From an uncultured Candidatus Rokubacteria bacterium (GTDB lineage Bacteria; Methylomirabilota; Methylomirabilia; Rokubacteriales; DASRDR01): a stretch of 64,000 nucleotides of DNA. The first letter of the stretch is position 1; each line of letters starts with the position of its first letter. The DNA lies in contig CAWGVS010000003.1 in assembly GCA_963826115.1 (NCBI GenBank), forward strand, positions 32,001-96,000, written 5' to 3'. The translations under genes and the position numbers were made by a program. Under the pieces are notes generated by a model, which did no database searches, was not told the DNA's origin, and was given only the letters and a program-made list of their open reading frames with translations. This document shows positions 48,223 to 64,000 of the stretch, one piece after another.

Positions 48223-48723
48223 ATGGCTACGGACAACTTCATGGTGGGTGAGTCGCTGGTCGGCGACGGCAACGAGATCGCGCACATCGACCTGATCATC
48301 GGTTCGAAGAGCGGGCCCGCCGGGATCGCCTTCGTGCATCGGGTCGCCGACCAGACGGCGGGTCACAACGGGCTCCTCGCCGTGCTCGCGCCCAACGTGC
48401 CGGCCAAGCCGGACACGGTCATGTTCAACAAGGTCACGATCAAGGGCGCCGGCCAGGCCGTCCAGATGTTCGGGCCCGCCCAGGCCGCGGTGGCCAAGGC
48501 GGTCGTCGACAGCGTCGCCGACGGCACCATCCCGAAGGCGAGCGCCAACGACCTCTGCGTGATCGTCGGCGTGTTCATCCACTGGCAGGCGAAGGACAAC
48601 AAGAAGATCTACGACTTCAACTACCGGGCGACCAAGGAAGCGATCACGCGGGCGATGAAGCACCACCCGACCGTGGACGAAGTCCTCGCCCAGAAGGACA
48701 CCGCCAAGCACCCATTCGCGTAG
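48223..48723 (+). CDS. fae: Formaldehyde-activating enzyme
   Basis: VGESLVGDGNEIAHIDL, NKVTIK, QMFGPAQAAVAKAV, VFIHW, NYRATKEAI. Confidence 0.96.
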   Translation: MATDNFMVGESLVGDGNEIAHIDLIIGSKSGPAGIAFVHRVADQTAGHNGLLAVLAPNVPAKPDTVMFNKVTIKGAGQAVQMFGPAQAAVAKAVVDSVADGTIPKASANDLCVIVGVFIHWQAKDNKKIYDFNYRATKEAITRAMKHHPTVDEVLAQKDTAKHPFA

Positions 48724-48745
48724 GCGCGGCGAGTCGCCGCCGCGC

Positions 48746-48785
48746 GGTCGGAGCCCGCGGTCTCGCGCGGCCGCGGGCTCCGGCC
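48746..48785 (+). terminator. Strong intergenic hairpin after fae
   Basis: GGTCGGAGCCCGCGGTC pairs with GGCCGCGGGCTCCGGCC. No U-tract. Confidence 0.55.
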
Positions 48786-48815
48786 CCGCCCTCGCCACGG
48801 CACGCCTGACACGCC

Positions 48816-49715
48816 ATGCTGCGCATCAACGGGGTCGAGATCGAGGACACCTTCGCCGAGGCCTTCAAGATGCGCGCGGCCCGCGCGATCGTGACAGCCG
48901 AAACCGCCGCCTGGGCGCACACCGCAGCGGCGCTCGCGACCGGGTACGCCACCTCCGTCATCGGCTGCGACGCCGAGGCCGGCCTCGAGTCCGAGGTGCC
49001 CCCGCACGAGACGCCGGACGGCCGGCCCGGCGTGAGCCTCCTGGTCTTCGGGTTCAACACCGCCGCGCTCGGGAAGGCGCTGGTGAACCGCGTCGGGCAG
49101 TGCGTGATGACATGTCCCACGACCGCCTGCTTCAACGGGCTCCACCCCGGCGAGGAGACCGTGAAGGTCGGCGCGCTCCTCCGCTTCTTCGGTGACGGGC
49201 ACCAGGCGAGCAAGAAGCTCGACGGCCGCCGCTACTGGCGGGTGCCGGTGATGGACGGCGAGTTCCTCTGCGAGGACACGTTCGGCGTCCAGCGCGCCGT
49301 CGCGGGCGGCAACTTCCTGATCCTCGCCACCGATCAGGCCGCCGGGCTCGCCGCGGCCGAGGCCGCCGTTCGGACCATCCGCGCCGTGCCGGGCGTGATC
49401 CTCCCCTTCCCCGGCGGGATCGTCCGGAGCGGGAGCAAGGTTGGCTCGCGTTACAAGGCGCTGAAGGCGTCGACGAACGACGAGTACTGCCCCACCCTCC
49501 GCGGACTGGGCGCGAGCCGTCTCCCCGCCGAGGTCCACGCCGTCTACGAGATCGTCATCGACGGTCTCGACGTCGGGGCGGTCGAGGCCGCCATGCGCGC
49601 CGGCGTCCGGGCCGCATGCCAACCCGGGGTCGTGCAGATCACCGCCGGCAACTACGGGGGCAAGCTCGGCCAGTACCCGCTCCACCTCCACCGGATCCTC
49701 GAATCCGGGTCATGA
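48816..49715 (+). CDS. fhcD: Formylmethanofuran:H4MPT formyltransferase (Ftr/FhcD)
   Basis: IEDTFAEAF, TSVIGCDAEAG, TPDGRPG, RVGQCVMTCPT, SGSKVGS, AGNYGGKLG. Confidence 0.96.
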   Translation: MLRINGVEIEDTFAEAFKMRAARAIVTAETAAWAHTAAALATGYATSVIGCDAEAGLESEVPPHETPDGRPGVSLLVFGFNTAALGKALVNRVGQCVMTCPTTACFNGLHPGEETVKVGALLRFFGDGHQASKKLDGRRYWRVPVMDGEFLCEDTFGVQRAVAGGNFLILATDQAAGLAAAEAAVRTIRAVPGVILPFPGGIVRSGSKVGSRYKALKASTNDEYCPTLRGLGASRLPAEVHAVYEIVIDGLDVGAVEAAMRAGVRAACQPGVVQITAGNYGGKLGQYPLHLHRILESGS

Positions 49716-50284
49716 TCGTCGAGACGGTGGTGACGACGCTGGACGAGGACGGCCAGGTGAACTTCGCCGCGATGGGCGTCGTGTGGGGCGAGGAGCGTCT
49801 CGTGATCCGGCCCTACGTCGCGACCCGCACGTTCCGGAACCTCGTTCGCACGCGCGAGGCCGTCGTCAACGTCACCGACGACGTGCTGGTCTTCGCGAAG
49901 AGCGCTCTCGCGCGGGAGCGCTTCCCGAGCCGCCCCGCGACGCGGGTCCGCGGCGCGATCCTGGCGGACGCCTGCCACTGGCGCGAGGTCGCCGTCGAGC
50001 GCGTGTCGGCGCCCGATCCCCCGCCGCCGGCGGGCGGCCGGGCCGACGTGGAGACCCGCGTCGTGGCCGGCGCGGTCGGCCGGCCGTTCGCCGGCCTCTG
50101 TCGCGCCAAGCACGCGGTGGTGGAGGCGAGCATTCTCGCCTCGCGGGCGCGGCGCCTCCCGCGGGACGAGGTGCTCAGGGGCCTCGCCCGGCTCGATCCC
50201 CTGGTCGACAAGACCGGCGGGCCGGCGGAGCGCGAGGCCATGGCATACATCCGCGACCACGTCCGCCGCCTCGTGAGCGGCTGA
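49712..50284 (+). CDS. DUF447 family protein
   Basis: MIVETVVTT, NFAAMG, TFRNL, NVTDDV, RAKHAVVEASILASR, KTGG. Confidence 0.85.
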   Translation: MIVETVVTTLDEDGQVNFAAMGVVWGEERLVIRPYVATRTFRNLVRTREAVVNVTDDVLVFAKSALARERFPSRPATRVRGAILADACHWREVAVERVSAPDPPPPAGGRADVETRVVAGAVGRPFAGLCRAKHAVVEASILASRARRLPRDEVLRGLARLDPLVDKTGGPAEREAMAYIRDHVRRLVSG

Positions 50285-50299
50285 CGGCGCCGACCCGGC

Positions 50300-51270
50300 A
50301 TGCGCACGATCGTCGAGGCGGGGGCGCGGCTCCACCTGGGGTTCCTGGACCTCCACGGCGGGTGCGGGCGGCGCTACGGGTCGATCGGCGTCACCCTCGA
50401 GCGCCCGCGCTGCACCGTGGCCGCCGGTCGCGCGCGCCCGGGCGATGCGCCGACGGCGAGCCCCGCGCTCGAGATCCTCGAAGGTCTCGCGCCCGGGCTC
50501 GACCCGAGGGCGATCACGGTCGAGCTCCTCGAGGCGATCCCCGCGCACGCGGGATTCGGCGCGGGCACCCAGCTCGCCCTCGCCGTCGCGCTGGCCGGCG
50601 CGCGCGCCGCCGGCCGCTCGATCGGCATCCGGGAGCTGGCCGCCCGGCTCGGTCGGGGGCAGCGCTCGGGCATCGGCGTCGCAGCCTTCGAGCGGGGTGG
50701 GCTCGTGATCGACGCGGGCCACGCGACGGGCGAGGATGACGGCGCGACCGCGTCACGCGCGCCGGAGCCCCCGCCGGTCGTCTTCCAGCACCCCCTGCCC
50801 GATGCCTGGCAGTTCGTGCTGGCCACGCCGCGCGCCGCTCCCGGTCTCTCCGGCGCGACGGAGCAGCGCGCGTTCGGGGATCTGCCGCCGATGGACGCCG
50901 GACGCGTCGGGCGGATCTGCCGACTCACGCTGATGCAGGTCATGCCGGCGGCGCTGACCAGCGACATCCGAACGTTCGGCGCCGCGATCACCGAGATCCA
51001 GACAGACGGTCGGCGACTACTTCGCGCCGTGGCAGGGCGGTCGGTTCGCGACCGAGACCGGCTGCCGGTGACCGAGCTCGCCCTCGCGCAAGGCGCTCAC
51101 GGCGTGGGCCAGAGCTCCTGGGGTCCGACGGTGTTCGCGCTGGTCCAGGGCGAGGCCGACGCCGAGGCGATGGCCGGCGCGATCGTGGGAGACGCTTCGG
51201 CGAGCGCCTCGCGTGGGTCGGCGTCAGTCCGGCGCGGAACCGGGGCGCGTCGTGCCGAGAGGCACCGTGA
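50300..51270 (+). CDS. mptG: Beta-ribofuranosylaminobenzene 5'-phosphate synthase (MptG), with apparent frameshifts
   Basis: ARLHLGFLDL, HAGFGAGTQL, RSGIG, GQSSWGPT. Motifs VGDYFAPWQGG and ARNRGA lie in shifted frames. Confidence 0.88.
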
Positions 51271-52262
51271 GCGCGAGCGATCGACCTGAACCGCCGCGCC
51301 ATCCGCTCGCCGACGCCCTCGCGGACGACGCCGCGCTCGTCGGCGTCCGGGTCACCGAGGTCGGTGGTGCCCGGCTGATCGACTGCGGCGTGGGCGTGGC
51401 GGGCGGGCTCGAGGCCGGGCGGCGCCTCGCGGAGATCTGTCTCGCCGGCCTCGGCACGGTGTCGCTCACCAGCGTGGACGTCGGAGGCCTCTGGCTCGCC
51501 GCGGTGGCGGTGACCACCGATCACCCGGTGACCGCGTGCCTCGCGAGCCAGTACGCCGGGTGGGCCATCGACCCCCCGGGGTACTTCGCCATGGGCTCGG
51601 GTCCCGCCCGCAGCGTGGCCCGGGTGGAGCGGGAGCTCTACCAGCGGATCGGCTATGCGGAGTCGGGAGACTCGGCCGTGCTCGTGCTGGAGGGTCGCGC
51701 CCTGCCGGACGAGGCGGTCGTGCGGTTCGTGGCCGACAAGTGTCGCGTCCGGCCGGAGGGTCTGAGCCTCCTGATCGCCCCCACCGCCAGCATCGCCGGC
51801 TGCGTCCAGGTGGCCGCGCGCTCCGTGGAGACGGGGCTCCACAAGATGCTCGAGCTCGGGTTCGACGTGCGCGCCGTGCGGAGCGGCGCCGGCGTGTGCC
51901 CGCTCGCCCCGGTGGCGAAGAACGACCTCCGCGGCATCGGCTGGACGAACGACTGCATCCTCTACGGCACGCGCGCCTACTTCGCCGTCCACGCCGACGA
52001 TGCCGAGGTCGCGGCGATGGTCGAGCGGCTCCCCGCCTCCTCGTCGGCGGACTACGGCACGCCCTTCTACGACATCTTCAAGCGGGCCGGGAACGACTTC
52101 TACAAGATCGACAAGATGCTGTTCAGCCCCGCCGAGGTCGTCGTGAACAACCTCGCCTCGGGGCGCGTCCTCCGGGCCGGACGGCTCGCCCCCGAGATCC
52201 TCCGCAGGTCGCTCGGGCTGGACGAGTCCGCGCCGGGCGCCGGTCCCGGGAGCCGGTCGTGA
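51267..52262 (+). CDS. mch: Methenyl-H4MPT cyclohydrolase
   Basis: GGLEAG, ACLASQYAGW, MGSGPAR, QVAARSVE, TNDCILYG, DFYKID..LFSPA. Confidence 0.96.
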   Translation: MSASDRPEPPRHPLADALADDAALVGVRVTEVGGARLIDCGVGVAGGLEAGRRLAEICLAGLGTVSLTSVDVGGLWLAAVAVTTDHPVTACLASQYAGWAIDPPGYFAMGSGPARSVARVERELYQRIGYAESGDSAVLVLEGRALPDEAVVRFVADKCRVRPEGLSLLIAPTASIAGCVQVAARSVETGLHKMLELGFDVRAVRSGAGVCPLAPVAKNDLRGIGWTNDCILYGTRAYFAVHADDAEVAAMVERLPASSSADYGTPFYDIFKRAGNDFYKIDKMLFSPAEVVVNNLASGRVLRAGRLAPEILRRSLGLDESAPGAGPGSRS

Positions 52263-53167
52263 AGGTCGTCATCCTGGGCTCCCGGTCCGGCTGGCACGAG
52301 GCCCGTCTCGGGCACGCGCTCCGGGAACGCGGCGCGGAGCCCATGGTGGCGCCGGTCACCGCGCTCGCGACCGCCGTGGCGGCCCCGGGCGAGGGACCGC
52401 GGCTCGCCGCCGGCGGCGTGCCGCTCGACGACTGCGGCGCGGTGATCGTGCGCGCGATCCCCGCCGGCTCGCTCGAGCAGGTGATCTTCCGGGTGGACGC
52501 CCTCCACCGCATGGCCCGACTCGGCGTCGCAGTCATCAACTCCCCGCGGTGTGTGGAGCGCACGGTGGACAAGTACTTCACCTCGACGATCCTCGAGGAC
52601 GCGGGCCTCCCGACGCCCCGGACCCGCGTGTGCGAGCGGGTCGACGACGCGCTCGCCGCCTACGAGGCCCTGGGCCGGGACGTCGTGATCAAGCCCCTCT
52701 TCGGCTCGGAGGGTCGCGGGATCGTGCGGGTGTCCGATCCCGACCTCGCGTACCGCACCTGCCGGGCCCTCGAGCTCACGCGGTCGGTATTCTATCTGCA
52801 GGAGTTCGTGCCCCACGGGGAGCGCGACATCCGAGCGTTCGTCGTCGGCGGCCGTCTGGTGGCGGCCATGACTCGCCGGGGCGCGGGGTGGAAGACGAAC
52901 GTCTCGCAGGGCGCGCGCGCGGAGCGGGTCGCCCTGTCCCCGGCGCTCGAGCGCCTGAGTCTCGAGGCCGCGGGGCGGCTCGAGGCCGACTACGCGGGGG
53001 TGGACCTTCTGTGCGCGGACGACGGGCGGACCTTCGTGATCGAGGTCAACGGGATACCGGGATGGCGCGGGCTCCAGCAGACGACCGACGTCGACGTCGC
53101 CGGCGCGATCGCCGACCACGCCATCGCGGTCGCCGGGCGCGGGCTCCCCGTCCCGGCCGCGCCATGA
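52259..53167 (+). CDS. RimK-family ATP-grasp glutamate ligase (Orf5/MptN-like)
   Basis: GSLEQVIFRVDAL, DKYFTS, KPLFGSEGRG, WKTNVSQG, EVNGIPGW. Confidence 0.9.
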   Translation: MKVVILGSRSGWHEARLGHALRERGAEPMVAPVTALATAVAAPGEGPRLAAGGVPLDDCGAVIVRAIPAGSLEQVIFRVDALHRMARLGVAVINSPRCVERTVDKYFTSTILEDAGLPTPRTRVCERVDDALAAYEALGRDVVIKPLFGSEGRGIVRVSDPDLAYRTCRALELTRSVFYLQEFVPHGERDIRAFVVGGRLVAAMTRRGAGWKTNVSQGARAERVALSPALERLSLEAAGRLEADYAGVDLLCADDGRTFVIEVNGIPGWRGLQQTTDVDVAGAIADHAIAVAGRGLPVPAAP

Positions 53168-54048
53168 GCGCGGCGGCGGTCCTCGCGGACCGGCCCTCGC
53201 CGGCGCGCATCGCGGCGGCCGCGACCCTGGCCTGCACGCTCGAGGCCTGCGCGGAGAAGGTGGGCAACGTCACGCCCACCCGCGCCTTCGCCGACGCGCG
53301 CTTCGACGACTTCGCGCTGAGCGCGCAGGCGCTCGGGTCCGCGGTCGCCGGCGCCGCGCCGGGCCGGGTGGGCCGCGCGATCTACGACGCGGTCGCCGCG
53401 ACCGGCCGCGTCGCGCCGTCCAACACCAACCTCGGCATGGCCCTCCTGTTCGCGCCGCTCGCGGCCGCCGCCCGCGGGCGCTCGAGGACGGCGCTCCGGC
53501 GTCGCCTGGTGCCGGTGCTGCGAGGGCTGAGCGTCGACGACGCGCGCTGGGCCTACCGGGCGATCCGCCTCGCGCGCCCGGGCGGGCTCGGGGAGAGCCC
53601 GGACGCGCCGGTCGCCCGCCCGCCCCGCATCACACTCGGCGAGGCCATGCGGCTGGCCGCGCGGCGGGACACCGTGGCGGCGGAGTACGGTCGGGGCTTC
53701 GCGGTGACGTTCGACCTCGCCCTCGCGCGGCTCCGCCGGGCGCTCCGCCGCGGCCTCCCGCTGCTCGACGCGATCGCGCAGGCCCACCTCGAGCTGATGG
53801 CCCGCGTGCCGGACACCCTGATCGCGCGCAAGGCCGGCGCCGCCGCCGCCGCGCGAGTGGCCGCGCGCGCCGACGCGGTGGTGCGGGCCGGGGGGATCGC
53901 GACGCGGCGCGGGCTCGCCGCCGCGCGGCGGCTCGACCGAGACCTCCGGCGGCACGGGAACCGCCTGAACCCCGGCACGTCGGCGGACCTCGTCGCTGCC
54001 GCCCTGTTCGTGTGGCTCCTGGAAGCGCCGGGACGAGGGCGCGCATGA
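53164..54048 (+). CDS. CitG-like protein of H4MPT clusters (Orf7)
   Basis: LEACAEKVGNV, NTNLGMALL, DTLIARKAG, NPGTSADLVAA. Confidence 0.88.
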   Translation: MSAAAVLADRPSPARIAAAATLACTLEACAEKVGNVTPTRAFADARFDDFALSAQALGSAVAGAAPGRVGRAIYDAVAATGRVAPSNTNLGMALLFAPLAAAARGRSRTALRRRLVPVLRGLSVDDARWAYRAIRLARPGGLGESPDAPVARPPRITLGEAMRLAARRDTVAAEYGRGFAVTFDLALARLRRALRRGLPLLDAIAQAHLELMARVPDTLIARKAGAAAAARVAARADAVVRAGGIATRRGLAAARRLDRDLRRHGNRLNPGTSADLVAAALFVWLLEAPGRGRA

Positions 54049-54569
54049 GCCGGCCGCCGAGCCCCTTCCGCGTCCGCATCGAGAAGGACTACACCGTCTT
54101 CTGCGCCGGCCACTTCATCACGTACGACGGGCACGAGTGCGAGCCGCTCCACGGCCACAACTACCGGGCGGCGGCCGCGCTGGAGGGCCCGCTGGACGAG
54201 AACGCCTACGTCTTCGACTTCAGCAAGCTCAAGCGCGCGCTCCGCGCCATCGTCGACCGCCTCGACCACCGGATGCTCCTGCCGACCAAGAGCGCGCTCA
54301 TCCGGGTTACGCAGTCGGGCGCCGAGGTGGAGGCGGCCTACCGGGAGAAGCGGTACGTCTTCCCGGCGAGCGACGTGGTGCTCCTCCCGATCCCCAACAC
54401 CACCGCCGAGATGCTGGCCTGGTGGATCGCGCAGGAGCTTCGCCGAAGTCTGGGCGCGCTCTCGCCCGGGATGACGGCCCTCGAGGTCGAGGTCGACGAG
54501 TCGTCCGGCCAGCGGGCCTTCTACCGGGAGCCGCTCGATTCCCCGGGCGGCGGAGCCGGGCCGGCGTGA
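54045..54569 (+). CDS. 6-pyruvoyl-tetrahydropterin synthase/QueD family, hybrid CExxHGH (PTPS-I/III) type
   Basis: FCAGH, CEPLHGHNY, DFSKLK, LDHRML, TTAEMLA, VDES. Confidence 0.88.
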   Translation: MSRPPSPFRVRIEKDYTVFCAGHFITYDGHECEPLHGHNYRAAAALEGPLDENAYVFDFSKLKRALRAIVDRLDHRMLLPTKSALIRVTQSGAEVEAAYREKRYVFPASDVVLLPIPNTTAEMLAWWIAQELRRSLGALSPGMTALEVEVDESSGQRAFYREPLDSPGGGAGPA

Positions 54570-56026
54570 CGGCGCCGTCGGTCGTCTACCTCGGCCTCGG
54601 CTCGAACCTGGGCGACCGCCAGGCGAACCTCGCGGAGGCGATCCAGGCCCTCCGCACCCACGTCCGGATCGAGCGCGTGTCCCCCGTGTACGAGACCGAG
54701 CCGGTGCACGTGACCGACCAGCCGCGGTTCCTGAACCTCGCCGTGAAGGGCGTCACCGCCCTCGAGCCGGCGGAGCTCCTCGCCGCGGTCAAGCGCATCG
54801 AGGCGCGGATGGGCCGGCAGCCGGGCGAGCGGTACGGCCCGCGGCCGATCGACGTCGACATCCTCTTCTACGGCGACCGCGTGATCCGCACCGACGCGCT
54901 CGAGGTGCCGCACCCGCGGGCCGCCGAGCGCGGCTTCGTCCTGGTGCCGCTCCACGACATCGCCCCCGACCTCCGGCATCCGGAGCGCGGGCGCAGCGTC
55001 GCCGAGCTCCTCCGGGATCTCGGGGAGACGCGCGGTATCGTCCGCGTGGCGCGCGGCCTCACGGCGCGGCTCGAGCGCGATGTCCAGGAGGAGTCGCCGC
55101 TCGCGCGGATCCGGCTCGACCAGACGGGCGTCACGGGACTCCACCGCATCATCCGCCTCTCCGACGGCCGGGGCCTCTTCTACGCGACGCTCGACCTCTT
55201 CGTCGAGCTGCCGGCCGACCAGAAGGGCGCCCACATGTCGCGCTTCAGCGACACGGTGGAGGAGGTGCTCGAGGACCTGGGCGCCTTCGAGGCCCCGATG
55301 ATCGAGACGCTCGCCGAGCGCATCGCGCGCGCCCTGACCGTCGGCCATCGCGCCGAGCGCGCGGACGTGGAGATCCGCGCCCAGTTTCCGCTCGAGCGCC
55401 GCGCGCCGATCTCCGGCAAGCCCTCGCAGGAGCTCTACACGCTGATCGGCCTCGCCGCCGCCAGCCCGCGCCGCACGGTCCAGCTCATCGGCGTGGAGGC
55501 GGAGGGGATGATGGCGTGCCCGTGCGCCCAGGAGATGGTCCGCGCGCAGGCCGAGGCGCGCCTCCGGGAGCACGGGCTCGCGCCGGACCTCACCGCGGAG
55601 GTCTTGTCGCTGGTCCCGATCGCCACGCACAACCAGCGGGGGCGCGGGCGCCTGCTGGTCGGCGCGGACCGCGCGCTCCGCGCCGAGGACCTGGTCGAGA
55701 TCGTCGAGGGCGCGATGAGCTCCGAGAACTACGACCTCCTGAAGCGCCCGGACGAGCTGTTCGTGGTGGAGAAGGCGCACCGCCACCCCCGTTTCGTCGA
55801 GGACGCGGTGCGGGAGATGCTGCGGACCTTCGTGAGCACCTACCCCGAGCTGGCGGACGACGCCTACGTCCACGCCCGGCAGGTGAACATGGAGACGATC
55901 CACAAGCACGACGTCTTCGCCCAGCGCGGCGGGCAGCTGGGCGAGATCCGGGGCGAGCTCCTCGACGGGAAGCCCCGCGGGAGCACCGCGCTCTCCGCCT
56001 GGCTCGCCGCCCGGCTCGCGGGCTAG
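54566..56026 (+). CDS. Fusion of FolK (HPPK) and MptA/FolE2-family GTP cyclohydrolase
   Basis: N-half YLGLGSNLGDR, YETEP, FLN, GPRPIDVDIL, PHP. C-half KGAHMSRF, GMMACPCAQ, THNQRG, LKRPDE, PRFVED, ETIHKHD. Confidence 0.92.
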   Translation: MTAPSVVYLGLGSNLGDRQANLAEAIQALRTHVRIERVSPVYETEPVHVTDQPRFLNLAVKGVTALEPAELLAAVKRIEARMGRQPGERYGPRPIDVDILFYGDRVIRTDALEVPHPRAAERGFVLVPLHDIAPDLRHPERGRSVAELLRDLGETRGIVRVARGLTARLERDVQEESPLARIRLDQTGVTGLHRIIRLSDGRGLFYATLDLFVELPADQKGAHMSRFSDTVEEVLEDLGAFEAPMIETLAERIARALTVGHRAERADVEIRAQFPLERRAPISGKPSQELYTLIGLAAASPRRTVQLIGVEAEGMMACPCAQEMVRAQAEARLREHGLAPDLTAEVLSLVPIATHNQRGRGRLLVGADRALRAEDLVEIVEGAMSSENYDLLKRPDELFVVEKAHRHPRFVEDAVREMLRTFVSTYPELADDAYVHARQVNMETIHKHDVFAQRGGQLGEIRGELLDGKPRGSTALSAWLAARLAG

Positions 56027-56763: not shown

Positions 56764-56843
56764 CGCGGAGCGGAGGATAGCACGCGTGCAACGCATCTTG
56801 GCGACGACGCCGGTCTGACCGGACGGCCTTCGGCCTGTGGGCG

Positions 56844-57866
56844 ATGACCCGCGCAAGCCGGGTCCTCGGCTGGGACGTGGGCGGCGCCTACGTCAAGGCG
56901 GCGGTCGTGGAGCAGGACGGAGCCGGACGCCGTGTCCGCACGGCGAGCCGGCCCTTCGAGATCTGGCGCGACAAGAACGCCTTGCCCGACGTCCTCCGCG
57001 CGCTCGCCGCCGAGCTGCCCGCACCGGAGTCCGTGGCGGTGACGATGACCGCGGAGCTCTCGGACGTGTTCCGGACGAAGCGCGAGGGCGTCCACTTCGT
57101 CCTCGACGCCGTCGAGGCCGTGTCGCGGGCGCCGGTGCGCGTCTTCACGACGGCGGGCGAGTTCGTGGACCCCGCCGTCGCGCGGGCGCGGCCCCTCGAC
57201 GCGGCGGCCTCCAACTGGGTCGCCACCGCCCTGCTGGTCGGGCGGTTCGTCCCCGAGACGCTCCTCGTGGACATCGGCTCGACGACGACCGACGTGATCC
57301 CGGTGACGAAGGGGCAGGTCGCGGCCCTCGGCCGGACCGACCCCGAGCGGCTCTCGAGCGGGGAGCTCGTCTACACCGGTGCCCTCCGCACGAACGTGGC
57401 GGCCATCGTCCGTCGGGTCCCCTTGCGGGGCGCCCAGTGCCCGGTGGCCTCCGAGCTGTTCTCGGTGAGCGGCGACGTCCACGTGCTCCTCGGATCTCTC
57501 GCGCCGGATGAGTACACGTGCCCGACTCCCGACGGCCGGCCGCCCACGCCGGAGTTCGCGGCGGAGCGCCTCGCGCGGGTCGTGTGCGCGGACGGCGACA
57601 TGCTCGACCCCGAGGAGATCCGGGCCATCGCGCGGGCGGTCGACGAGGCGCAGGTCGAGGAGATCGCGGGGGCCATCGCCCGGGTGGCGGGCCGGCGGGC
57701 CGAGGGAACGCCCGTGATCGTCACCGGGCTCGGCGCCTTCCTCGCGCGCCGCGCCGCGGAACGGCTCGGGCTGCCGGTCCGGGATCTCGCGGACGTCCTC
57801 GCCGTCGACGTCGGCACCGTCGCGCCCGCGGTCGCCGTCGCCTGGCTCCTCCTCGACGCCGACTGA
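56844..57866 (+). CDS. mfnF: H4MPT-linked hydantoinase/oxoprolinase-like protein (Orf9/MfnF)
   Basis: GWDVGGAYVK, TMTAELSD, AASNW, DIGSTTTD, ELVYTGALRT, RLARVVCAD. Confidence 0.88.
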   Translation: MTRASRVLGWDVGGAYVKAAVVEQDGAGRRVRTASRPFEIWRDKNALPDVLRALAAELPAPESVAVTMTAELSDVFRTKREGVHFVLDAVEAVSRAPVRVFTTAGEFVDPAVARARPLDAAASNWVATALLVGRFVPETLLVDIGSTTTDVIPVTKGQVAALGRTDPERLSSGELVYTGALRTNVAAIVRRVPLRGAQCPVASELFSVSGDVHVLLGSLAPDEYTCPTPDGRPPTPEFAAERLARVVCADGDMLDPEEIRAIARAVDEAQVEEIAGAIARVAGRRAEGTPVIVTGLGAFLARRAAERLGLPVRDLADVLAVDVGTVAPAVAVAWLLLDAD

Positions 57867-57869
57867 CGC

Positions 57870-58523
57870 ATGCGCCGGGCTCGCGCGACGCCCGACTGGG
57901 TGATCAAGGTCGGCGGGAGTCTGGGCGCGCGACCCGCCCCGCTCCGTCGCCTGATGGCCACCCTGGCGCGCGCCGGGCGGCACCGCTGGCTCGTCGTCGT
58001 CCCCGGCGGCGGTAGCTTCGCCGACGAGGTGCGCCGGGCCGACCGCCGCTACGACCTCGGCGACTCGGCCGCCCACTGGATGGCCATCCTGGCGATGGAC
58101 CAGTACGGCCATCTTCTCGCGCGGCTCGCGCCCGGGGCACGCGTCGCGGCGAGCCGGCGCGAGCTCGCCCCGGGCCGGCTCAACGTGCTGCTCCCGTCAG
58201 CCTGGCTCCGGCGCGCCGACCCCCTGCCCCATTCCTGGGACGTCACGTCGGACTCGATCGCCGCGTGGGTGGCCCGCGAGCTCGGCGTCCGGCGCCTCAT
58301 GCTGGTGAAGCACCGTGACGGTTTCGTCGCGCCCGCCCGCGGGCCGCGGAGGGTGCCGCCGCGCGAGCGGCGATCCTCCCTCGCCGCGCTCGCGGGCGCG
58401 GTCGACCCCTATTTCGCGCGCGCCGTCGATCCGGCCACTGGCTGCTGGCTCGTCCAGGGACACCGGCCCGGCGCGATCGCGCGTCTCATCGACGCGGACG
58501 GGCCGCGCGGATCGCGCGCCTAG
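57870..58523 (+). CDS. mfnE: Amino-acid-kinase family protein (Orf21/MfnE-like)
   Basis: VIKVGGSL, VPGGGSFADEVR, AHWMAILAMDQ, PHSWDVTSDSIA, VDPYF. Confidence 0.85.
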   Translation: MRRARATPDWVIKVGGSLGARPAPLRRLMATLARAGRHRWLVVVPGGGSFADEVRRADRRYDLGDSAAHWMAILAMDQYGHLLARLAPGARVAASRRELAPGRLNVLLPSAWLRRADPLPHSWDVTSDSIAAWVARELGVRRLMLVKHRDGFVAPARGPRRVPPRERRSSLAALAGAVDPYFARAVDPATGCWLVQGHRPGAIARLIDADGPRGSRA

Positions 58524-58555: not shown

Positions 58556-59275
58556 TCAGGCCGACTGCCCGACGGTCGGCCGGGGGCCGCGTGCGCGGAC
58601 GAGGGCGCGCACCCGCTCGGCGTCGACCCGGCCCCCGACACGGTCGCCGATGCAGGCGGCGCCGCGCACGCCCACGAGGTCGGGGCCGATCGGCGCGAGC
58701 CGCGCGAGGTCCTCGACCCGAAGGGAGCCGGCGAGCGCCGAGAAGAGGCCGCGCGCGCGGCAGTCCTCGACGAAGGCCGCGAGCTCGTCCTCGCCGAGCC
58801 AGTGGAAGAGCCCGCGGCCGTCCTTCACGGCGGTGTCGACCAGGCAGCCGTGGGCGCCCGCGGCGGCGGCGAGGGCCGGCAGGTCGCGGGGCCGGGGCGC
58901 TCCCGCGCGCGCGAAGTCGGCGAAGCCCGCCACCACGAGGTAGGCCTCGGGAGGCAGGCTCGCGCGCGCCGCGCGAAGAGCGGCCGCGGCCGCCGCCGGC
59001 GACGTCTCGCGGAGCCCGAGCTTCACGTAGATCGCGCCGCTCCGCGCCGCCGCCCCGGCCAGGGCCGCCGCCACCGCCGGCGTGAACGGCCCATCGCCGA
59101 GCGCGGCGCTCACCGGCAGGCTCGCGGGCGTGGCGTCCCGCACCGCGCGGACCGTGGCCGGCGCGGCCTCGCCGAGGGCTCCGAGCGCGGGATCCTTGAC
59201 GTCGATGATGTCGGCGCCGGCGTCCGCCGCGATCCGGGCTTCCGCGGCGTCCACGACGCTCACCAGGAGGCGCAT
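58556..59275 (-). CDS. mfnB: (5-formylfuran-3-yl)methyl phosphate synthase (Orf22/DUF556)
   Basis: MRLLVSV...EA, GADIIDVKDP..GALG, PVSAALGD, DTAVKDG, LAGSL, GVRGAAC. Confidence 0.92.
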   Translation of the reverse strand: MRLLVSVVDAAEARIAADAGADIIDVKDPALGALGEAAPATVRAVRDATPASLPVSAALGDGPFTPAVAAALAGAAARSGAIYVKLGLRETSPAAAAAALRAARASLPPEAYLVVAGFADFARAGAPRPRDLPALAAAAGAHGCLVDTAVKDGRGLFHWLGEDELAAFVEDCRARGLFSALAGSLRVEDLARLAPIGPDLVGVRGAACIGDRVGGRVDAERVRALVRARGPRPTVGQSA

Positions 59276-59342: not shown

Positions 59343-60101
59343 GTGAGGCGTCTCGACGGTCAGGTGGCGGTGGTCACCGGGGCGAGCCGGGGCATCGGCC
59401 GCGCGATCGCGCTCGCGCTCGCGCGGGAAGGCGCGCGCGTCGTCGTCAACTACTCCCGGTCGCGTGAGCTCGCCGAGGCCGTGGTCGCCGAGATGGTTGC
59501 CGCCGGGGGCGAGGCCCTCGCCATCCGCGCGGACGTTTCGCGGTCGGACGACGTCGCCAATCTCCTGGGCTCGACGCTCGGCACGTGGGACCGGATCGAC
59601 ACGTGGGTCAACAACGCGGGCGCCGACATCCTGACGGGCGACGCGCGGACCTGGCCCCCCGAGCGCCGCTGGGACGCGGTGATGACCGTCGACCTCAAGG
59701 GCACCTGGCTGTGCTCGCGGGCGGCGGCGGACGCGATGCGCCGGGCCGGCGGCGGCGTCATCGTGAACCTCTCCTGGGACCACGTCACCCACGGGATGGG
59801 CAACCAGACGGCGGCCATCTACGCCGCCGCGAAGGGCGGCGTGGCGGCCATGAGCCGTTCCCTCGCGCGGGAGTACGCGCCCCTCGTGCGGGTCAACGTG
59901 GTCGCGCCCGGCTGGGTCCGGACCGAGTGGCTCGACGGCGCCGGCGCCGAGGTCCAGCAACACGTGAGGGACGCGACCCCGCTCGGCCGTCCCGGCACGC
60001 CCGACGACGTCGCCGGCGCGGTCGCGTTCCTCGCCTCCGCCGACGCGGCCTTCATCACCGGACAGACCCTGCTGGTGAACGGAGGCGTCGTGGCCAGCTG
60101 A
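59343..60101 (+). CDS. Short-chain dehydrogenase/reductase
   Basis: TGASRGIG, NNAG, YAAAK, VNVVAPG, ITGQ. SD AGGAGG. Confidence 0.92.
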   Translation: MRRLDGQVAVVTGASRGIGRAIALALAREGARVVVNYSRSRELAEAVVAEMVAAGGEALAIRADVSRSDDVANLLGSTLGTWDRIDTWVNNAGADILTGDARTWPPERRWDAVMTVDLKGTWLCSRAAADAMRRAGGGVIVNLSWDHVTHGMGNQTAAIYAAAKGGVAAMSRSLAREYAPLVRVNVVAPGWVRTEWLDGAGAEVQQHVRDATPLGRPGTPDDVAGAVAFLASADAAFITGQTLLVNGGVVAS

Positions 60102-60592: not shown

Positions 60593-61975
60593 GTGCCCAA
60601 GACGCTCTTCGTCACCGGCAAGCTCGCCGAGCCGGCGCTCCGGGCGACGCTCGCCCGGATGGCGCCGGACTTCCCCTACGAGGTGGTGGTCCTGCGGATC
60701 ACCGTCGCCGCGCTCATGACGACCTCCTGGATCGCGAAGCACCTCACGGACGTCTCCGGCTCGGAGCGCATCGTCATCCCGGGTCTCTGCGAGGGCGACG
60801 TGCGGGCGATCGAGGACCGGTGGGGCGTGAGGGCCGAGAAGGGGCCCACCGACCTCCGGGACCTGCCGGAGCACTTCGGTCAGGCGGCGCTCCGGGAAGA
60901 ATACGGCGCCCACGACATCCGGATCTTCGCGGAGATCAACAACGTCCCGTACCTCCCCCGCGAGGAGGTGGTGCGGGCAGCGGAGTACTACCGGGCGAGC
61001 GGCGCCGACGTCGTCGACCTCGGCTGCTCCCTCGACCGGAAGTTCGACGACGTCGCCGAGGTCGTGGGCCTCCTGAAGGCCCGCGGGTTCACCCTCAGCA
61101 TCGACACCCTCGACCCCGGGGAGATCGCCGCCGCCGACCGGGCCGGCGTCGACTACGTGCTGAGCCTGAACGGCCGGAACCTCGACCTGGCCGACACGCT
61201 CCGGGCCACGCCGGTCCTCATCCCGGACTCGCCCGCCGAGCTCGACACCCTGGACCGGAGCATCGCCCGTCTCGAGGCGCTCGGGCATCCCTACATCGTG
61301 GATCCGGTGATCGAGCCGATCGGGTTCGGCTTCGCGGCGGCGCTCGACCGCTACGTGCAGGTCCGGGCGCGCCACCCCGCGGTCGAGATCCTGATGGGCA
61401 TCGGCAACATCACGGAGCTGACCGACGCCGACACCACCGGGATGAACGCGCTCCTGATCGGCTTCTGCCAGGAGCTCGGCGTCCGTCACGTGCTCACGAC
61501 CGAGGTCATCCCGTGGGCGCGCGGCTCGGTGCGGGAGATCGACGTGGCCCGCCGTCTGATGTACGCGGCCCGCCAGCGCGGCGTCCTCCCGAAGCACGTC
61601 GACGACCGGCTGCTCACGGTCAAGGACGCGCGACCGAAGTACTACGCGGAGGCGGAGCTCCGGGAGCTCCACCGCGCGATCACCGATCCGAACTTCCGCA
61701 TCGCGACGACGCGCGATGCGATCTGCGTGTTCAACAACCGCCTGTTCGTGACCGGCACGGACATCCAGGCGATCTTCGAGCAGCTCGACGTCCAGGACCC
61801 CGCCCACGCGTTCTACCTCGGCAAGGAGCTGATGAAGGCCCGCCTCGCGCTCCTCCTCGGCAAGACCTACGTGCAGGAGCAGCCGCTCCGCTGGGGCTAC
61901 CTGACGCCCCCGCGCGAGGACACGGCCCACCGCCGCGTGCGGATCGAGGGACGCCGGAAGCCGCGGGACCAGTAG
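60593..61975 (+). CDS. Dihydropteroate synthase-like protein (Orf20-type)
   Basis: LFVTGKLAE, VAALMT, GADVVDLG, DPVIEPIGFG, GIGNITELTDAD, HAFYLGKEL. Confidence 0.88.
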   Translation: MPKTLFVTGKLAEPALRATLARMAPDFPYEVVVLRITVAALMTTSWIAKHLTDVSGSERIVIPGLCEGDVRAIEDRWGVRAEKGPTDLRDLPEHFGQAALREEYGAHDIRIFAEINNVPYLPREEVVRAAEYYRASGADVVDLGCSLDRKFDDVAEVVGLLKARGFTLSIDTLDPGEIAAADRAGVDYVLSLNGRNLDLADTLRATPVLIPDSPAELDTLDRSIARLEALGHPYIVDPVIEPIGFGFAAALDRYVQVRARHPAVEILMGIGNITELTDADTTGMNALLIGFCQELGVRHVLTTEVIPWARGSVREIDVARRLMYAARQRGVLPKHVDDRLLTVKDARPKYYAEAELRELHRAITDPNFRIATTRDAICVFNNRLFVTGTDIQAIFEQLDVQDPAHAFYLGKELMKARLALLLGKTYVQEQPLRWGYLTPPREDTAHRRVRIEGRRKPRDQ

Positions 61976-62048: not shown

Positions 62049-62300
62049 ATGGAGCGCACAGGTTCGTCGATCCCGAAGACCTCGGTCCGTCCCCCGCGCA
62101 GGGCGCTCGGCCTCGGCCTCGGCGCCGGGCTGCTGGCCCTCGCGGGCACCCTCGCGCTCGGCGGCTGCTACGTCGTGCCGGCCCACACGGCCTATGTCGC
62201 GCCGGCGCCCGTCTACGTGACGCCCGCCCCCGTGTACGTGGTGCCCGCGCCCAGGTACTACTACGGCGGGTACGGGTGGCGGGGCTACCGACGCTGGTGA
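62049..62300 (+). CDS. Small Pro/Tyr-rich lipoprotein
   Basis: SD GGAGG, lipobox LGGC, APAPVYV repeats. Confidence 0.7.
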   Translation: MERTGSSIPKTSVRPPRRALGLGLGAGLLALAGTLALGGCYVVPAHTAYVAPAPVYVTPAPVYVVPAPRYYYGGYGWRGYRRW

Positions 62301-62405
62301 GGAGCGTCCGACCGCGCCGATCGGTCCGCTGATCGCCGCCGCGCCTCCCGCGGCGCGTGGGGTAGGATTGTGGGACGCCGCAAGTCACCCCACCGGGAGG
62401 TGCGC

Positions 62406-63260
62406 GTGAAGAAGTTGCTCCTGCAGCTCGATCCCGACAAGCATCCCAGCGCGTTCGACCGCATCGTCGCCCACGACGCGGGCGCGGATGAGGTCCTGAG
62501 CTACGGCGGCGTGGCGCCGGCCGACGTCACGCCGCTCGTGCACGGCGCGATCTTCACGCGCGGACCCGGCGAGCTCCGCAACACCGCGATATGGGTCGGC
62601 GGCACGGACGTCGGCCAGGCCGAGGCGCTGTTCGCCGCGGTCCAGAAGGCGTTCTTCGGCCCGTTCCGGGTCAGCGTGATGATGGACGCCAACGGGTGCA
62701 ACACGACCGCCGCCGCCGCGGTGGCGCGGCTCGCCGGCGTGGTCACGCTCTCCGGCGCCCGGGCCGTCGTCCTGGGCGGAACCGGGCCGGTCGGGCTCCG
62801 GGCGGCGACGCTCCTGGCGCGCGAGGGCGCCGGCGTGACCCTCTGCTCGCGGTCCCACGAGCGGGCACGCGCCGCGTGCGAGCAGCTGAAGGCGCGCTTC
62901 GCGGTGGACGTGAGCCCGTGCGAGGCGTGGGACGAGGAGGGGGTGGCGCGCGCGCTCGAGGGCGCCGACGTCTGCCTGACCGCCGGCGCCGCCGGCATTC
63001 AATTCCTCCCGCGCTCCCTGTGGGCTCCGCACCCCGCGCTGAAGGCGCTCGCCGATGTGAACGCGGTCCCCCCGCTGGGCATCGGCGGCATCGAGGCGAC
63101 CGACAAGGGGGCCGAGCGAGACGGCAAGCGCGTGTTCGGCGCGCTCGGCATCGGCGGCCTCAAGATGAAGGTCCACCGCGCGTGCGTGGCGAAGCTCTTC
63201 GAGCGAAACGACACCGAGCTGGACCTCGAGGCCATCTACGCTGCCGCGCGCGCCAGCTGA
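62406..63260 (+). CDS. mtd: NAD(P)-dependent methylene-H4MPT dehydrogenase (MtdC/MtdA-like)
   Basis: KKLLLQLD..HPSAFD, HGAIFTRG, FFGPFRVSVM.DANGCNTTAAA, GGTGPVG, DVNAVPP, IGGLKMK. Confidence 0.92.
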   Translation: MKKLLLQLDPDKHPSAFDRIVAHDAGADEVLSYGGVAPADVTPLVHGAIFTRGPGELRNTAIWVGGTDVGQAEALFAAVQKAFFGPFRVSVMMDANGCNTTAAAAVARLAGVVTLSGARAVVLGGTGPVGLRAATLLAREGAGVTLCSRSHERARAACEQLKARFAVDVSPCEAWDEEGVARALEGADVCLTAGAAGIQFLPRSLWAPHPALKALADVNAVPPLGIGGIEATDKGAERDGKRVFGALGIGGLKMKVHRACVAKLFERNDTELDLEAIYAAARAS

Positions 63261-63296
63261 GGCACCCGCGGCGCGCTCGGGCCCCGCTCCCGACTG

Positions 63297-64000
63297 ATGC
63301 CGCGCGTCGTCGGCGTCGATCCCGGCACGCAGAGCGTGGACCTCTGCGGACTCGCGGACGGCCAGGTGTTCCTCGAAGCGTCGGTCCCGGCCGATGAGGG
63401 GGGCCGCGCCCCGGCGGCGCTGGTGGACCGGCTGGCCGCGGCGCTTCCCCTCGACCTGATCGTCGCGCCCTCCGGCTACGGGCTGCCGCTCGTCCCCGTC
63501 GCCCAGCTCGACCCGTCGCGCCTCGACCTCGCGCTCCTCGTGCGACCCGAGGACCGCGCGCAGCCGGAGCGTGTCGGCGGCCTCCGCGCCATGCTCGAGG
63601 GGATGCAGGCGCGCGGGCTGCCGGCGGTTCTCCTGCCCGGCGTGGTGCACCTCGACACCGTGCCGGCGCACCGCAAGGTGAACCGCGTCGACATGGGCAC
63701 CGCGGACAAGCTGTGCGTGGCCGCCCTCGGCATCTGGGACCAGAGCCGCCGCCTCGCGTGTTCGCCCGCCGAGACCGGATTCGTGCTGCTCGAGCTCGGT
63801 GGCTTCTTCACCGCCGCGCTCGCCGTCGAGGCGGGGTGCGTCGTCGACGGGATCGGCGGGAGCGCGGGAGGCCTCGGGTACCGCGCCCTCGGGACGCTCG
63901 ACGGCGAGGTCGCCTACGTCCTCGGACGGGTGCGGAAGTCGGCGCTCTTCACCGGCGGGGCCGCGTTCGTCGCCGGCGCGCCGGACCTCTCCCCCGAGGA
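63297..64000 (+). CDS. DUF1464 family protein (ASKHA-like), truncated by the window end
   Basis: Own translation: MPRVVGVDPGT, APSGYGLP, PGVVHL.TVP.HRKVNRVDMGTADK, DGIGGS. Confidence 0.85.
   Translation, partial: MPRVVGVDPGTQSVDLCGLADGQVFLEASVPADEGGRAPAALVDRLAAALPLDLIVAPSGYGLPLVPVAQLDPSRLDLALLVRPEDRAQPERVGGLRAMLEGMQARGLPAVLLPGVVHLDTVPAHRKVNRVDMGTADKLCVAALGIWDQSRRLACSPAETGFVLLELGGFFTAALAVEAGCVVDGIGGSAGGLGYRALGTLDGEVAYVLGRVRKSALFTGGAAFVAGAPDLSPE

Follow-up and report, generated by a model that had tools for sequence, protein, structure and literature searches.

Can a member of the Rokubacteria, an abundant uncultured soil lineage, oxidize formaldehyde with tetrahydromethanopterin (H4MPT) and methanofuran, and is the gene cluster that points to this capacity its own? 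The question is raised by a 64,000-nucleotide stretch of a Rokubacteria-lineage genome (hereafter the window, positions 32001-96000 of contig C3), in which a first-pass annotation had read positions 48223-64000 as a large H4MPT/methanofuran one-carbon (C1) transfer cluster and had proposed that it might be a lineage-specific variant mixing bacterial and archaeal-type genes. That observation is real and well read; the interpretation is partly supported and overstates the novelty. With a probability of roughly 0.8 for the explanation taken as a whole, positions 48223-64000 and a further 2.5 kb beyond the window appear to form a C1 island based on H4MPT and methanofuran in a bacterium of the Rokubacteria lineage (phylum Methylomirabilota), which would oxidize formaldehyde through to CO2 with the help of a dehydrogenase encoded elsewhere in the genome.

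The H4MPT/methanofuran island

The island encodes the enzymes that mark formaldehyde oxidation via H4MPT in bacteria, namely formaldehyde-activating enzyme (Fae), an NAD(P)-type methylene-H4MPT dehydrogenase (Mtd), methenyl-H4MPT cyclohydrolase (Mch), and formylmethanofuran:H4MPT formyltransferase (Ftr/FhcD). In the proposed pathway, Fae would condense formaldehyde with H4MPT, the MtdA/C-type dehydrogenase would yield methenyl-H4MPT, Mch would convert this to formyl-H4MPT, and Ftr would pass the formyl group to methanofuran or methylofuran, while the last step, from formyl-methanofuran to CO2, would fall to the products of fwdD-fwdB-fwdA-fwdC on contig C10. The other 15 island genes may serve the synthesis of both cofactors. 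Profile matches back every gene that the first-pass annotation had listed between 48223 and 64000 (18/18), and its description of Mtd as MtdC/A-like was borne out by a score of 306 bits to the Methylorubrum extorquens MtdA structures. This Mtd is only 35-41% identical to the cluster-linked (MtdB-type) Mtd of Proteobacteria and NC10-like genomes, and MtdA and MtdC are not separable for it in a comparison that held no MtdC reference.

The source assembly comprises 6.24 Mb in 12 contigs, with 72% GC (70.5-72.8% by contig) and 99% completeness; its size and GC agree with published Rokubacteria, which have large genomes of 64-71% GC (PMC5712423). The window lies inside a 209 kb contig (71.5% GC), GC around the island is approximately 74%, and the GC content at third codon positions (GC3) of the island genes is 0.88-0.96. 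Raw lists of open reading frames (ORFs) were crowded with spurious frames at such high GC, and frames were chosen by third-position GC. Gene names were taken from Pfam and NCBIfam profile searches, with NCBIfam cut-offs quoted beside the scores. For comparison, the FolK-MptA fusion protein of the island was aligned with 13 database relatives and species-representative genomes were then scanned, yielding 40 loci; gene orders were read by tblastn of the island proteins over the fetched loci (L numbers below denote loci). The features of the island are as follows, with cut-offs in brackets.

47956..47984, + strand: sigma-70-like promoter candidate, TTGACA-17-TAGTAT, 10/12 matches, about 240 nt upstream of fae; consensus match only
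48223..48723, + strand: fae, formaldehyde-activating enzyme; PF08714 238.9 bits, TIGR03126 248.8 (118)
48816..49715, + strand: ftr/fhcD, formylmethanofuran:H4MPT formyltransferase; FTR and FTR_C domains, TIGR03119 446.1 bits (292.6)
49712..50284, + strand: DUF447 protein (PF04289/PF20766 pair); DUF447_N 80.3 and DUF447_C 41.9 bits; ATGA overlap with ftr
50300..51289, + strand: mptG, beta-ribofuranosylaminobenzene 5'-phosphate (RFA-P) synthase family; GHMP kinase domains, TIGR00144 166.3 bits (113.5)
51267..52262, + strand: mch, methenyl-H4MPT cyclohydrolase; PF02289 387.7 bits, TIGR03120 387.3 (228.8); start uncertain, 51213-51267
52259..53167, + strand: RimK-type ATP-grasp glutamate ligase (orf5; MyfB/MptN-like); rimK_fam 197.6 bits (143.4); GTGA overlap with mch
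53164..54048, + strand: CitG-like protein (orf7); PF01874 226.3 bits; ATGA overlap with the upstream gene
54045..54569, + strand: 6-pyruvoyl-tetrahydropterin synthase (PTPS)-family protein, candidate PTPS-III; PF01242 86.9 bits; ATGA overlap with the upstream gene
54566..56026, + strand: fusion of FolK (hydroxymethyl-dihydropterin pyrophosphokinase, HPPK) and an MptA-type GTP cyclohydrolase; HPPK 135.6 and GCHY-1 214.1 bits, TIGR01498 144.7 (54.1), TIGR00294 280.1 (220)
56023..56856, - strand: orf17, HisA/HisF-like TIM barrel; PF00977 (His_biosynth) 122 bits, TIGR00734 133.1, below its cut-off (179.85); likely start 56796
56844..57866, + strand: mfnF-like gene (orf9); Hydantoinase_A 119.8 bits, TIGR03123 353.1 (244.1)
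57870..58523, + strand: mfnE-like kinase (orf21); AA_kinase 50.8 bits, NF040622 92.9, below its cut-off (300)
58556..59275, - strand: mfnB (orf22), 4-(hydroxymethyl)-2-furancarboxaldehyde-phosphate (4-HFC-P) synthase; PF04476 (4HFCP_synth) 224.2 bits, NF002575 199.7, below its cut-off (304)
59312-59284, - strand: promoter-like site directly upstream of mfnB; consensus match only
59343..60101, + strand: classical short-chain dehydrogenase/reductase (SDR); adh_short_C2 197.2 bits
60190..60570 (ORF opens at 60124), + strand: pterin-4a-carbinolamine dehydratase (PCD); PF01329 87.3 bits, NF002017 87.8 (80)
60593..61975, + strand: dihydropteroate-synthase (DHPS)-like protein (orf20/MptH-like); DUF6513 85.4 and PterinBD 35.2 bits, TIGR00284 194.3, below its cut-off (256.65)
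62370..63260 (likely start about 62400), + strand: mtd, NAD(P)-dependent methylene-H4MPT dehydrogenase of MtdA/C type; Mpt_N 109.4 bits
63297..64000, + strand, cut by the window end (full length 364 aa): DUF1464 protein, putative kinase of ASKHA fold; PF07318 285.2 bits in full, 215.8 for the part in the window

The orf gene names reportedly go back to Kalyuzhnaya et al. 2005 (J Bacteriol 187:4607). The contiguous, translationally coupled run described by the first-pass annotation is real as to the coupling, with four-base ATGA/GTGA overlaps from ftr to folK-mptA (49712-49715, 52259-52262, 53164-53167, 54045-54048, and 54566-54569), but orf17 and mfnB lie on the minus strand, so the strands imply approximately five transcription units rather than one co-directional operon. 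The two promoter-like sites in the region compare with 0.2 expected from shuffled sequence. Past the window end, the island continues for 2.5 kb through the rest of the DUF1464 gene and an ATP-grasp_3 gene, whose product is 33-36% identical to proteobacterial OrfY/MyfA, and is followed by unrelated genes. The island genes are single-copy in the genome, except that it also encodes a Fae paralog (35% identical), a housekeeping FolK, and a QueD-like PTPS; the Fae-like paralog lies at C10:22637-23140, unlinked to the island. Rfam models gave no match in positions 46000-64000 at E <= 0.1.

Upstream of fae, a cNMP-binding anion transporter gene (44101-46599) is followed by a gene for a 436-aa protein with a signal-peptide-like N-terminus (46629-47939, + strand), which matched no Pfam family and whose neighbors in a language-model search are glycoside-hydrolase-like TIM-barrel proteins. 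Since only about 0.3 kb separates the transporter end from fae in four relatives (L015, L016, L019, and L052), this gene is an insertion of about 1.3 kb specific to the source genome.

Terminal complex and probable direction of the pathway

The first-pass annotation had advised looking for methanol dehydrogenase and fhc/fwd genes elsewhere in the genome, and that search located a fwdD-fwdB-fwdA-fwdC-fdhD operon on contig C10, unlinked to the island, and no methanol dehydrogenase. FwdA (TIGR03121, 677-679 bits), FwdC (TIGR03122, 261 bits), and FwdB (TIGR03129, 372 bits) all score over their cut-offs, and the gene upstream of fwdB encodes a FwdD-like Molydop_binding protein (PF01568, 47 bits; NF042908, 82 bits, below its cut-off of 175). 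The fwdB gene carries a single in-frame TGA at the catalytic position (context HTSL-U-HGPT), which reads as Cys in 12/12 homologous stretches of relatives, and the selenocysteine (Sec) motif of the FwdB family is UHxP (PMC13188914, Table 1). The TGA is kept in three other genomes of the same genus (91% aa identity), and the 60 nt that follow it are identical at 58-59/60 positions in relatives, compared with 87-88% across the whole gene; a Cys-type fwdB copy, 63-64% identical, occurs in two genomes. The genome also encodes tRNA-Sec, SelA, SelB, and SelD. FwdB thus probably carries Sec and is a candidate selenoprotein. SelA, SelB, and tRNA-Sec are clustered at C8:81424-86039, SelD (C5:561687-562604, + strand) itself contains one in-frame TGA and is Sec-containing, and the literature gives a Methylomirabilota metagenome-assembled genome (MAG) as holding the richest selenoproteome among bacteria (PMC13188914).

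In proteobacterial FhcB, Cys118, His119, Arg288, and the Fe-S domain have disappeared, and the FwdD subunit is gone as well (PMC6926001), whereas the source FwdB keeps U116, H117, R289, and the N-terminal Cys 11/14/16/18 and is accompanied by a fwdD gene, and so falls outside the definition of FhcB as a degenerate protein with no FwdD. It matches archaeal FwdB structures at 320-378 bits, compared with 56.5 bits for M. extorquens FhcB. Because FwdB keeps the Fe-S motif and a catalytic residue (probably Sec) and is paired with FwdD, the complex would be a true molybdenum/tungsten (Mo/W) dehydrogenase and not an Fhc hydrolase; formyl-methanofuran is therefore most likely oxidized to CO2, not hydrolysed to formate as in Proteobacteria. 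The source FwdB, at 354-378 bits, resembles that of the archaeal FwdABCD complexes (Methanothermobacter wolfeii, PDB 5T5I, and relatives) in its N-terminal Cys cluster, U/C-H pair, PMRGH arginine, and separate FwdD; unlike those systems, the source bacterium combines the complex with Fae and an NAD(P)-type Mtd, and its fwd genes have FdhD, an enzyme of the aldehyde:ferredoxin oxidoreductase (AOR) family, and MobA as neighbors, with no FwdF/G gene nearby. The retention of fwdD in NC10, Firmicutes, and Synergistetes had already been noted (PMC5020050). Just downstream of fwdDBAC-fdhD lies the AFOR_N/AFOR_C aldehyde:ferredoxin oxidoreductase gene, of the tungsten-enzyme family (positions 12654-15433 of L014, a locus on C10; - strand), with a MobA-ThiS/MoaD-like gene beside it and a gene for an Fdh-N alpha subunit at L014 16667-19747, together a small Mo/W enzyme island on C10.

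The sequence establishes which genes are present, their order, their homology, and their conservation; the direction of flux, the electron acceptor, and the source of the substrate are matters of inference. Neither the pyrroloquinoline quinone (PQQ) methanol dehydrogenase model TIGR03075 nor tblastn with Paraburkholderia XoxF gave any match in the genome, and because no PQQ methanol/ethanol dehydrogenase is present, the module most likely dissimilates or detoxifies formaldehyde from sources other than methanol dehydrogenase. Among the genome's 36 luciferase-like or Mer-like matches, none exceeds the cut-off for Mer, and therefore the route would stop at the methylene level. Copper membrane monooxygenase (PF02461) had no match in the genome, a result of little weight because the model also found nothing in the control genomes. 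In two Rokubacteria relatives, xoxF lies directly upstream of fae (L018 78-1850 and L068 9160-10884; 53-54% identical to Paraburkholderia XoxF). Within the window, 12-30 kb upstream of the island, an Fe-type alcohol dehydrogenase (17555-19147, - strand), two flavin amine oxidases (18888-20360, + strand, and 33743-35350, - strand), and a MauG-like di-haem peroxidase (35340-36653, - strand) are conceivable aldehyde sources, with no link to the island shown.

Several points weigh against this interpretation. The MfnE, MfnB, MptN, TIGR00284, and hisAF_rel scores fall under their equivalog cut-offs, and the exact activities of these proteins are read from context; the best genome match to the MfnA model TIGR03812 reaches 82.9 bits against a cut-off of 299.4, and tblastn with the second ATP-grasp protein of Thiodictyon, an MfnD-type candidate, found no match in the genome. 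No gene for a polyferredoxin (FwdF/G) or other electron acceptor occurs among those within 8 kb of fwd, the stretch to which this search was confined. Folding of the 62 nt downstream of the TGA gave no more signal than shuffled sequences (z = 0.34), and genes for FdhD and an Fdh-N alpha subunit lie within 8 kb of fwd, which would allow a formate route.

The last two points bear on an alternative in which the C10 complex is Fhc-like, releasing formate that the nearby Fdh-N would then oxidize, with the TGA as a real stop or a decaying site. FdhD and the Fdh-N alpha subunit (TIGR01553, 1185 bits) do lie 0.1-8 kb downstream of fwdC, and a significant fold of the selenocysteine insertion sequence (SECIS) was not detected after the TGA. 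However, that codon falls exactly at the Cys/Sec catalytic position and is kept in three further genomes with the frames intact on both sides, the Sec machinery is complete, FwdD and the Fe-S motif have been kept, unlike in FhcB, and M. extorquens FhcB is only a 56.5-bit match, all of which makes an Fhc-like complex quite improbable. Slightly better odds, though still long ones, attach to a reductive module in which Fwd fixes CO2 onto methanofuran and the C1 unit is reduced to methylene-H4MPT and then fed into tetrahydrofolate (H4F) and serine metabolism by a bifunctional MtdA-like enzyme. FwdB shows the full set of features seen in the archaeal enzyme that reduces CO2, Mtd is closest to MtdA, the bifunctional H4MPT/H4F enzyme, and the tungsten-type aldehyde:ferredoxin oxidoreductase next to fwd hints at low-potential electron carriers; yet the island is headed by Fae, whose formaldehyde capture is a hallmark of the oxidative route, no Mer exceeds its cut-off, no ferredoxin-reducing partner was found beside fwd, and the xoxF genes directly upstream of fae in L018 and L068 fit oxidation. 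Oxidation of formaldehyde to CO2 remains the preferred reading.

Pterin and furan cofactor branches

For pterin synthesis, the profile searches recover a complete set consisting of GTP cyclohydrolase, a candidate for the aldolase bypass, HPPK, RFA-P synthase, and the DHPS-like protein, the last under the TIGR00284 cut-off with its Pfam domains present. In the proposed branch, an MptA-type cyclohydrolase fused to FolK, a PTPS in place of the aldolase, MptG, and the DHPS-like enzyme would act together, with the DUF447 protein, the CitG-like protein, PCD, SDR, and DUF1464 as accessory proteins, whose roles we infer from their setting. The cyclohydrolase half of the fusion scores 280.1 bits with the MptA model (cut-off 220) and fails the cut-off of the FolE2 model (139.8 against 215). 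Both domains occur in 118/120 of the best database relatives, and the architecture is common in metagenomes; a limited literature search found no published FolK-MptA fusion.

The best solved relatives of the island PTPS are Plasmodium PTPS (72 bits), with the motif E-x-L-H-G-H-N-Y aligned; its glutamate is presumably the mark of PTPS-III, an enzyme said, in work of Dittrich in 2008 and Pribat in 2009, to make 6-hydroxymethyl-dihydropterin and so to bypass the aldolase. The island protein is accordingly put forward as a candidate PTPS-III that may bypass dihydroneopterin aldolase. A housekeeping folB (C2:123064-123396, Pfam) lies beside a second folK, whose product is 43% identical to the island FolK, and because this standard folB-folK pair is also present, the island PTPS and FolK-MptA would constitute a separate pterin route. 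The same Pfam match ruled out the idea that PTPS stands in for a missing FolB in folate synthesis; tblastn with Paraburkholderia FolB found no match in the genome, a false negative given the Pfam detection.

DUF1464 was found in Sulfolobus only among 14 control genomes. Its predicted structure (7 sequences; mean local confidence pLDDT 77.3, predicted TM-score pTM 0.85) is closest in fold to butyrate, propionate, and acetate kinases (TM-scores 0.57-0.59), a language-model search recovered ASKHA kinases and kin of methanogenesis marker 12, and its gene and the one for the DHPS-like protein share loci in Rokubacteria, one NC10-like family, and Caldisericota. These predictions suggest that DUF1464 is probably a kinase in cofactor synthesis. 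DUF447 shows a split-barrel, PNPOx-like hint and adjoins mptG in Rokubacteria, NC10-like, Chloroflexota, and Caldisericota loci. The orf5 product scores 258.8 bits with MptN_Meth, under the cut-off of 350, and is 39-43% identical to the RimK protein encoded after mch in proteobacterial clusters, whereas every NCBIfam CitG/MdcB equivalog scores below cut-off for orf7. PCD is also present in proteobacterial H4MPT clusters at 46-54% identity, one of the points against the interpretation of the first-pass annotation, and the DHPS-like protein is 41% identical to a DUF6513 protein of Paraburkholderia.

The furan branch is represented in the island by MfnB, MfnE, MfnF, and Orf17 and by a MyfB-type and a MyfA-type ATP-grasp glutamate ligase, which would together build the furan cofactor. 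In the published assignments, Orf5 is MyfB, OrfY is MyfA, Orf9 is MfnF, Orf21 is MfnE, and Orf22 is MfnB, while Orf17, also assigned, is a protein that M. extorquens cannot do without in making methylofuran (PMC8141765). The suggestion of a pterin/furan route of the lineage's own therefore holds in part: the separate pterin branch is real, though common to several phyla, whereas the furan branch is the known set of MfnB/E/F, Orf17, and MyfA/B. A similar division applies to the archaeal-type markers, since the MptA-type cyclohydrolase and DUF1464 are absent from the proteobacterial replicons examined, but DUF1464 is no methanogen marker.

The enzyme that reduces dihydromethanopterin is the remaining gap. 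The lineages described are DmrA and DmrB/AfpA in bacteria and DmrX in archaea (PMC6193120). In the source genome, the dihydrofolate reductase (DHFR) family (PF00186, DmrA-type/FolA-type), the AfpA/DmrB model TIGR02699, and tblastn with Paraburkholderia DmrB and Azospirillum DmrA all gave 0 matches, and two PF02441 matches are not AfpA-like. None of five Methylomirabilota genomes (5/5) has a TIGR02699 match over cut-off, and full-length AfpA/DmrB was found in none of the four Chloroflexota genomes tested (4/4). Planctomycetes reportedly lack Afp. The model does detect a DmrB-like gene in Caldisericota (120.7 bits), where this flavoprotein gene directly follows FolK-MptA (L039 11486-12031 and L040 11570-12073; 43-45% identical to the Paraburkholderia protein). 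No DHFR_1 protein turned up in the source genome, which is 99% complete; some other enzyme must therefore reduce dihydrofolate as well.

The SDR is a candidate for this role. It is kept at 63-81% identity in 11 Rokubacteria loci, adjoins the DHPS-like gene in both NC10-like genomes (40% identity), and directly follows FolK-MptA in L037, thus standing beside DHPS-like or FolK-MptA genes in Rokubacteria, NC10-like genomes, and one Ardenticatenia locus. Its orthologs occur in only 8 of the 151 Methylomirabilota genomes sampled in the phylum survey, all of them (8/8) with H4MPT-pathway genes and 7/8 with an mch match; the eighth, G149, lacks that match and carries fwdB copies. G149 belongs to the source genus and has Sec-type and Cys-type fwdB together with the SDR ortholog, and its mch may have been missed or disrupted. 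On the other side, the SDR is FabG-like: FabG proteins head its solved relatives, and the 60 best of these include no pteridine reductase. In the source genome, tblastn with the SDR gives 87 matches. We tentatively suggest, with the odds somewhat against it, that the SDR may act as the dihydromethanopterin reductase of Methylomirabilota (Rokubacteria and NC10 methanotrophs) and possibly of other H4MPT-containing bacteria without DmrA/DmrB, which would make it a third type, non-homologous to the others. A role of the SDR as a ketoreductase in ribityl side-chain synthesis fits equally well, as does DUF447 as the real dihydromethanopterin reductase.

Host, distribution and meaning of the island

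The first-pass annotation had judged the host to be Rokubacteria-like, and the relatives confirm this: the closest loci (86-89% aa identity over the fusion protein, same order) come from MAGs titled Rokubacteria, Rokuibacteriota, or Methylomirabilota, and three genomes of the same genus are sequence-identical in Mch to MAGs so titled. A proteobacterial host, hinted at by an OprD porin at 37526-38896, was dropped because the closest fusion-protein loci are those of Rokubacteria MAGs. The next fusion-protein loci are two titled Acidobacteriota or Vicinamibacteria (70-71%), followed by Chloroflexota (48-61%) and Caldisericota (53-54%). The gene order of the island is found again in at least 8 loci of Rokubacteria MAGs, being identical as far as the loci reach in L015, L016, L018, L019, L020, L023, and L052, and also in L070; in Rokubacteria L017 and L021, the front is fwdD-B-A-ftr-DUF447-mptG-fwdC-mch instead of fae-ftr.

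Across the survey, mch was detected in 27/151 genomes, comprising 4/10 of the source family (f1; 4/6 of the source genus), 2/94 of the other large and main Rokubacteriales family (f2), and 16/18 and 4/12 in two families of the same class with genomes of 2-3 Mb (f5 and f6), which we take to be the NC10 methanotroph lineage. The Mch tree holds 31 rows; 10 were omitted, namely L052, L037, L068, L069, L065, L053, L029, L066, and L034, with hits covering less than 80% of the query, and L063, where the gene is a partial copy of that in L075. It resolves five well-supported clades, formed by Rokubacteriales (100/99, 14 rows), Chloroflexota (95/93), Proteobacteria (100/99), NC10-like genomes (99/99), and one Acidobacteriota-titled row. 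With open deep forks and a single long archaeal outgroup, the tree does not order the five clades, and it favors neither vertical descent in the phylum nor transfer to or from Chloroflexota.

Could the island nonetheless be foreign, carried on a mis-binned contig or recently transferred from a proteobacterial or planctomycete methylotroph? The pathway is rare in Rokubacteriales, as the mch counts in f2 (2/94) and f1 (4/10) show, and the proteogenomic study of Butterfield et al. 2016 reports Rokubacteria with XoxF and no formaldehyde pathway in its genomes (PMC5103831). Against this, the island lies mid-contig in 209 kb of sequence with a GC content (71.5%) that matches the other 11 contigs (70.5-72.8%), the GC3 is 0.88-0.96, relatives show synteny for the flanking transporter gene, the order is repeated in at least 8 independent loci of Rokubacteria MAGs, and Mch is 39-47% identical to proteobacterial proteins and lies in a separate, fully supported clade. 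A foreign origin is already largely refuted and scarcely credible. One Rokubacteria genus, together with a few relatives, carries the island as a stable trait; it is neither a contaminant nor unique to them.

The proteobacterial comparison drew on a plasmid collection, in which 36 replicons carry Mch, and on six annotated loci that were inspected. M. extorquens and the Paraburkholderia, Azospirillum, Thiodictyon, Aquabacterium, and Phyllobacterium replicons share with the island fae, mtd, mch, ftr/fhcD, mptG, orf5, and orf7, as well as orf17, orf9 (mfnF), orf21 (mfnE), orfY (myfA-like), PCD, and the DUF6513/DHPS-like gene, with a common micro-synteny of mch-RimK-CitG and of orf17 divergent from mfnF, but the identities to island proteins are only 33-62%. 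The island adds PTPS, FolK-MptA, DUF447, DUF1464, and SDR, which were not seen in the proteobacterial flanks or replicons examined; the plasmid collection gave 0 matches to DUF1464 and no full-length match to FolK-MptA, and FwdD was not seen in the loci inspected. Paraburkholderia and Aquabacterium have an in-cluster folB and the flavoprotein DmrB, and Azospirillum an in-cluster DHFR-type DmrA, all of which the island lacks. In addition, proteobacterial Mtd is MtdB-like and the terminal complex is FhcABCD, whereas the source genome has an MtdA/C-like enzyme and a Fwd-type complex with FwdD and probable Sec. The departures from Proteobacteria are thus three, a dedicated pterin branch, no DmrA/DmrB found, and an unlinked fwdDBAC of probable Sec type.

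These variant features are shared with neighboring phyla. The NC10-like genomes ('Candidatus Methylomirabilis'-like, f5/f6, 2-3 Mb), of the same phylum and class, hold the island gene set in a different order, including fwdD-fwdB-fwdA-ftr-fwdC-mch-mptN-citG, DUF447-mptG, PTPS, mfnB/E/F, and orf17; as in the island, their DHPS-like gene has an adjacent SDR, and they have no AfpA/DmrB either. Unlike in the island, mtd directly follows fae, the fwd genes are part of the cluster, and the opposite strand carries the cofactor genes; the proteins are 30-75% identical to those of the island (only 40-41% for Mtd), Mch forms its own clade, and no FolK-MptA fusion occurs in the 40 kb examined. Chloroflexota loci (Anaerolineae, Caldilineaceae, Ardenticatenia, and Promineifilaceae titles) share the FolK-MptA fusion, 49-61% identical, and a core block, which in loci such as L037 and L050 runs mch-mptN-citG-PTPS-folK_mptA-orf17(-)-mfnF-mfnE-mfnB(-)-PCD-DHPSl in common with the island. 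They differ in carrying fwdDBA-ftr-fwdC in the cluster, with Cys-type FwdB, and DUF447-mptG at the far end; fae, mtd, and DUF1464 were not seen in their flanks, and SDR in only some loci (L037 and L050). A gene set specific to one lineage, as the first-pass annotation had supposed, is therefore not tenable, and its account of Proteobacteria, Planctomycetes, and archaea as the known holders of the pathway is outdated, because Chistoserdova (2016) lists the H4MPT pathway for NC10, Chloroflexi, Firmicutes, and others (PMC5020050).

Current views are not overturned, as non-proteobacterial H4MPT clusters and retained fwdD were both noted in 2016 (PMC5020050). A limited literature search found no published description of the H4MPT pathway in Rokubacteria, and the finding gives this lineage a complete pathway for formaldehyde oxidation on H4MPT and methanofuran, cofactor genes included, as a capacity that is confined to a few genera and, in the source genome, uncoupled from methanol dehydrogenase. 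It offers three leads: a true formyl-methanofuran dehydrogenase in a bacterium, alongside Fae and probably dependent on selenium and Mo/W; a fused FolK-MptA and PTPS module that would supply the H4MPT pterin independently of folate; and a candidate for the missing dihydromethanopterin reductase in bacteria without DmrA and DmrB. If the SDR is indeed that reductase, then SDR, PTPS, and FolK-MptA would make up a full pterin route distinct from that of folate.

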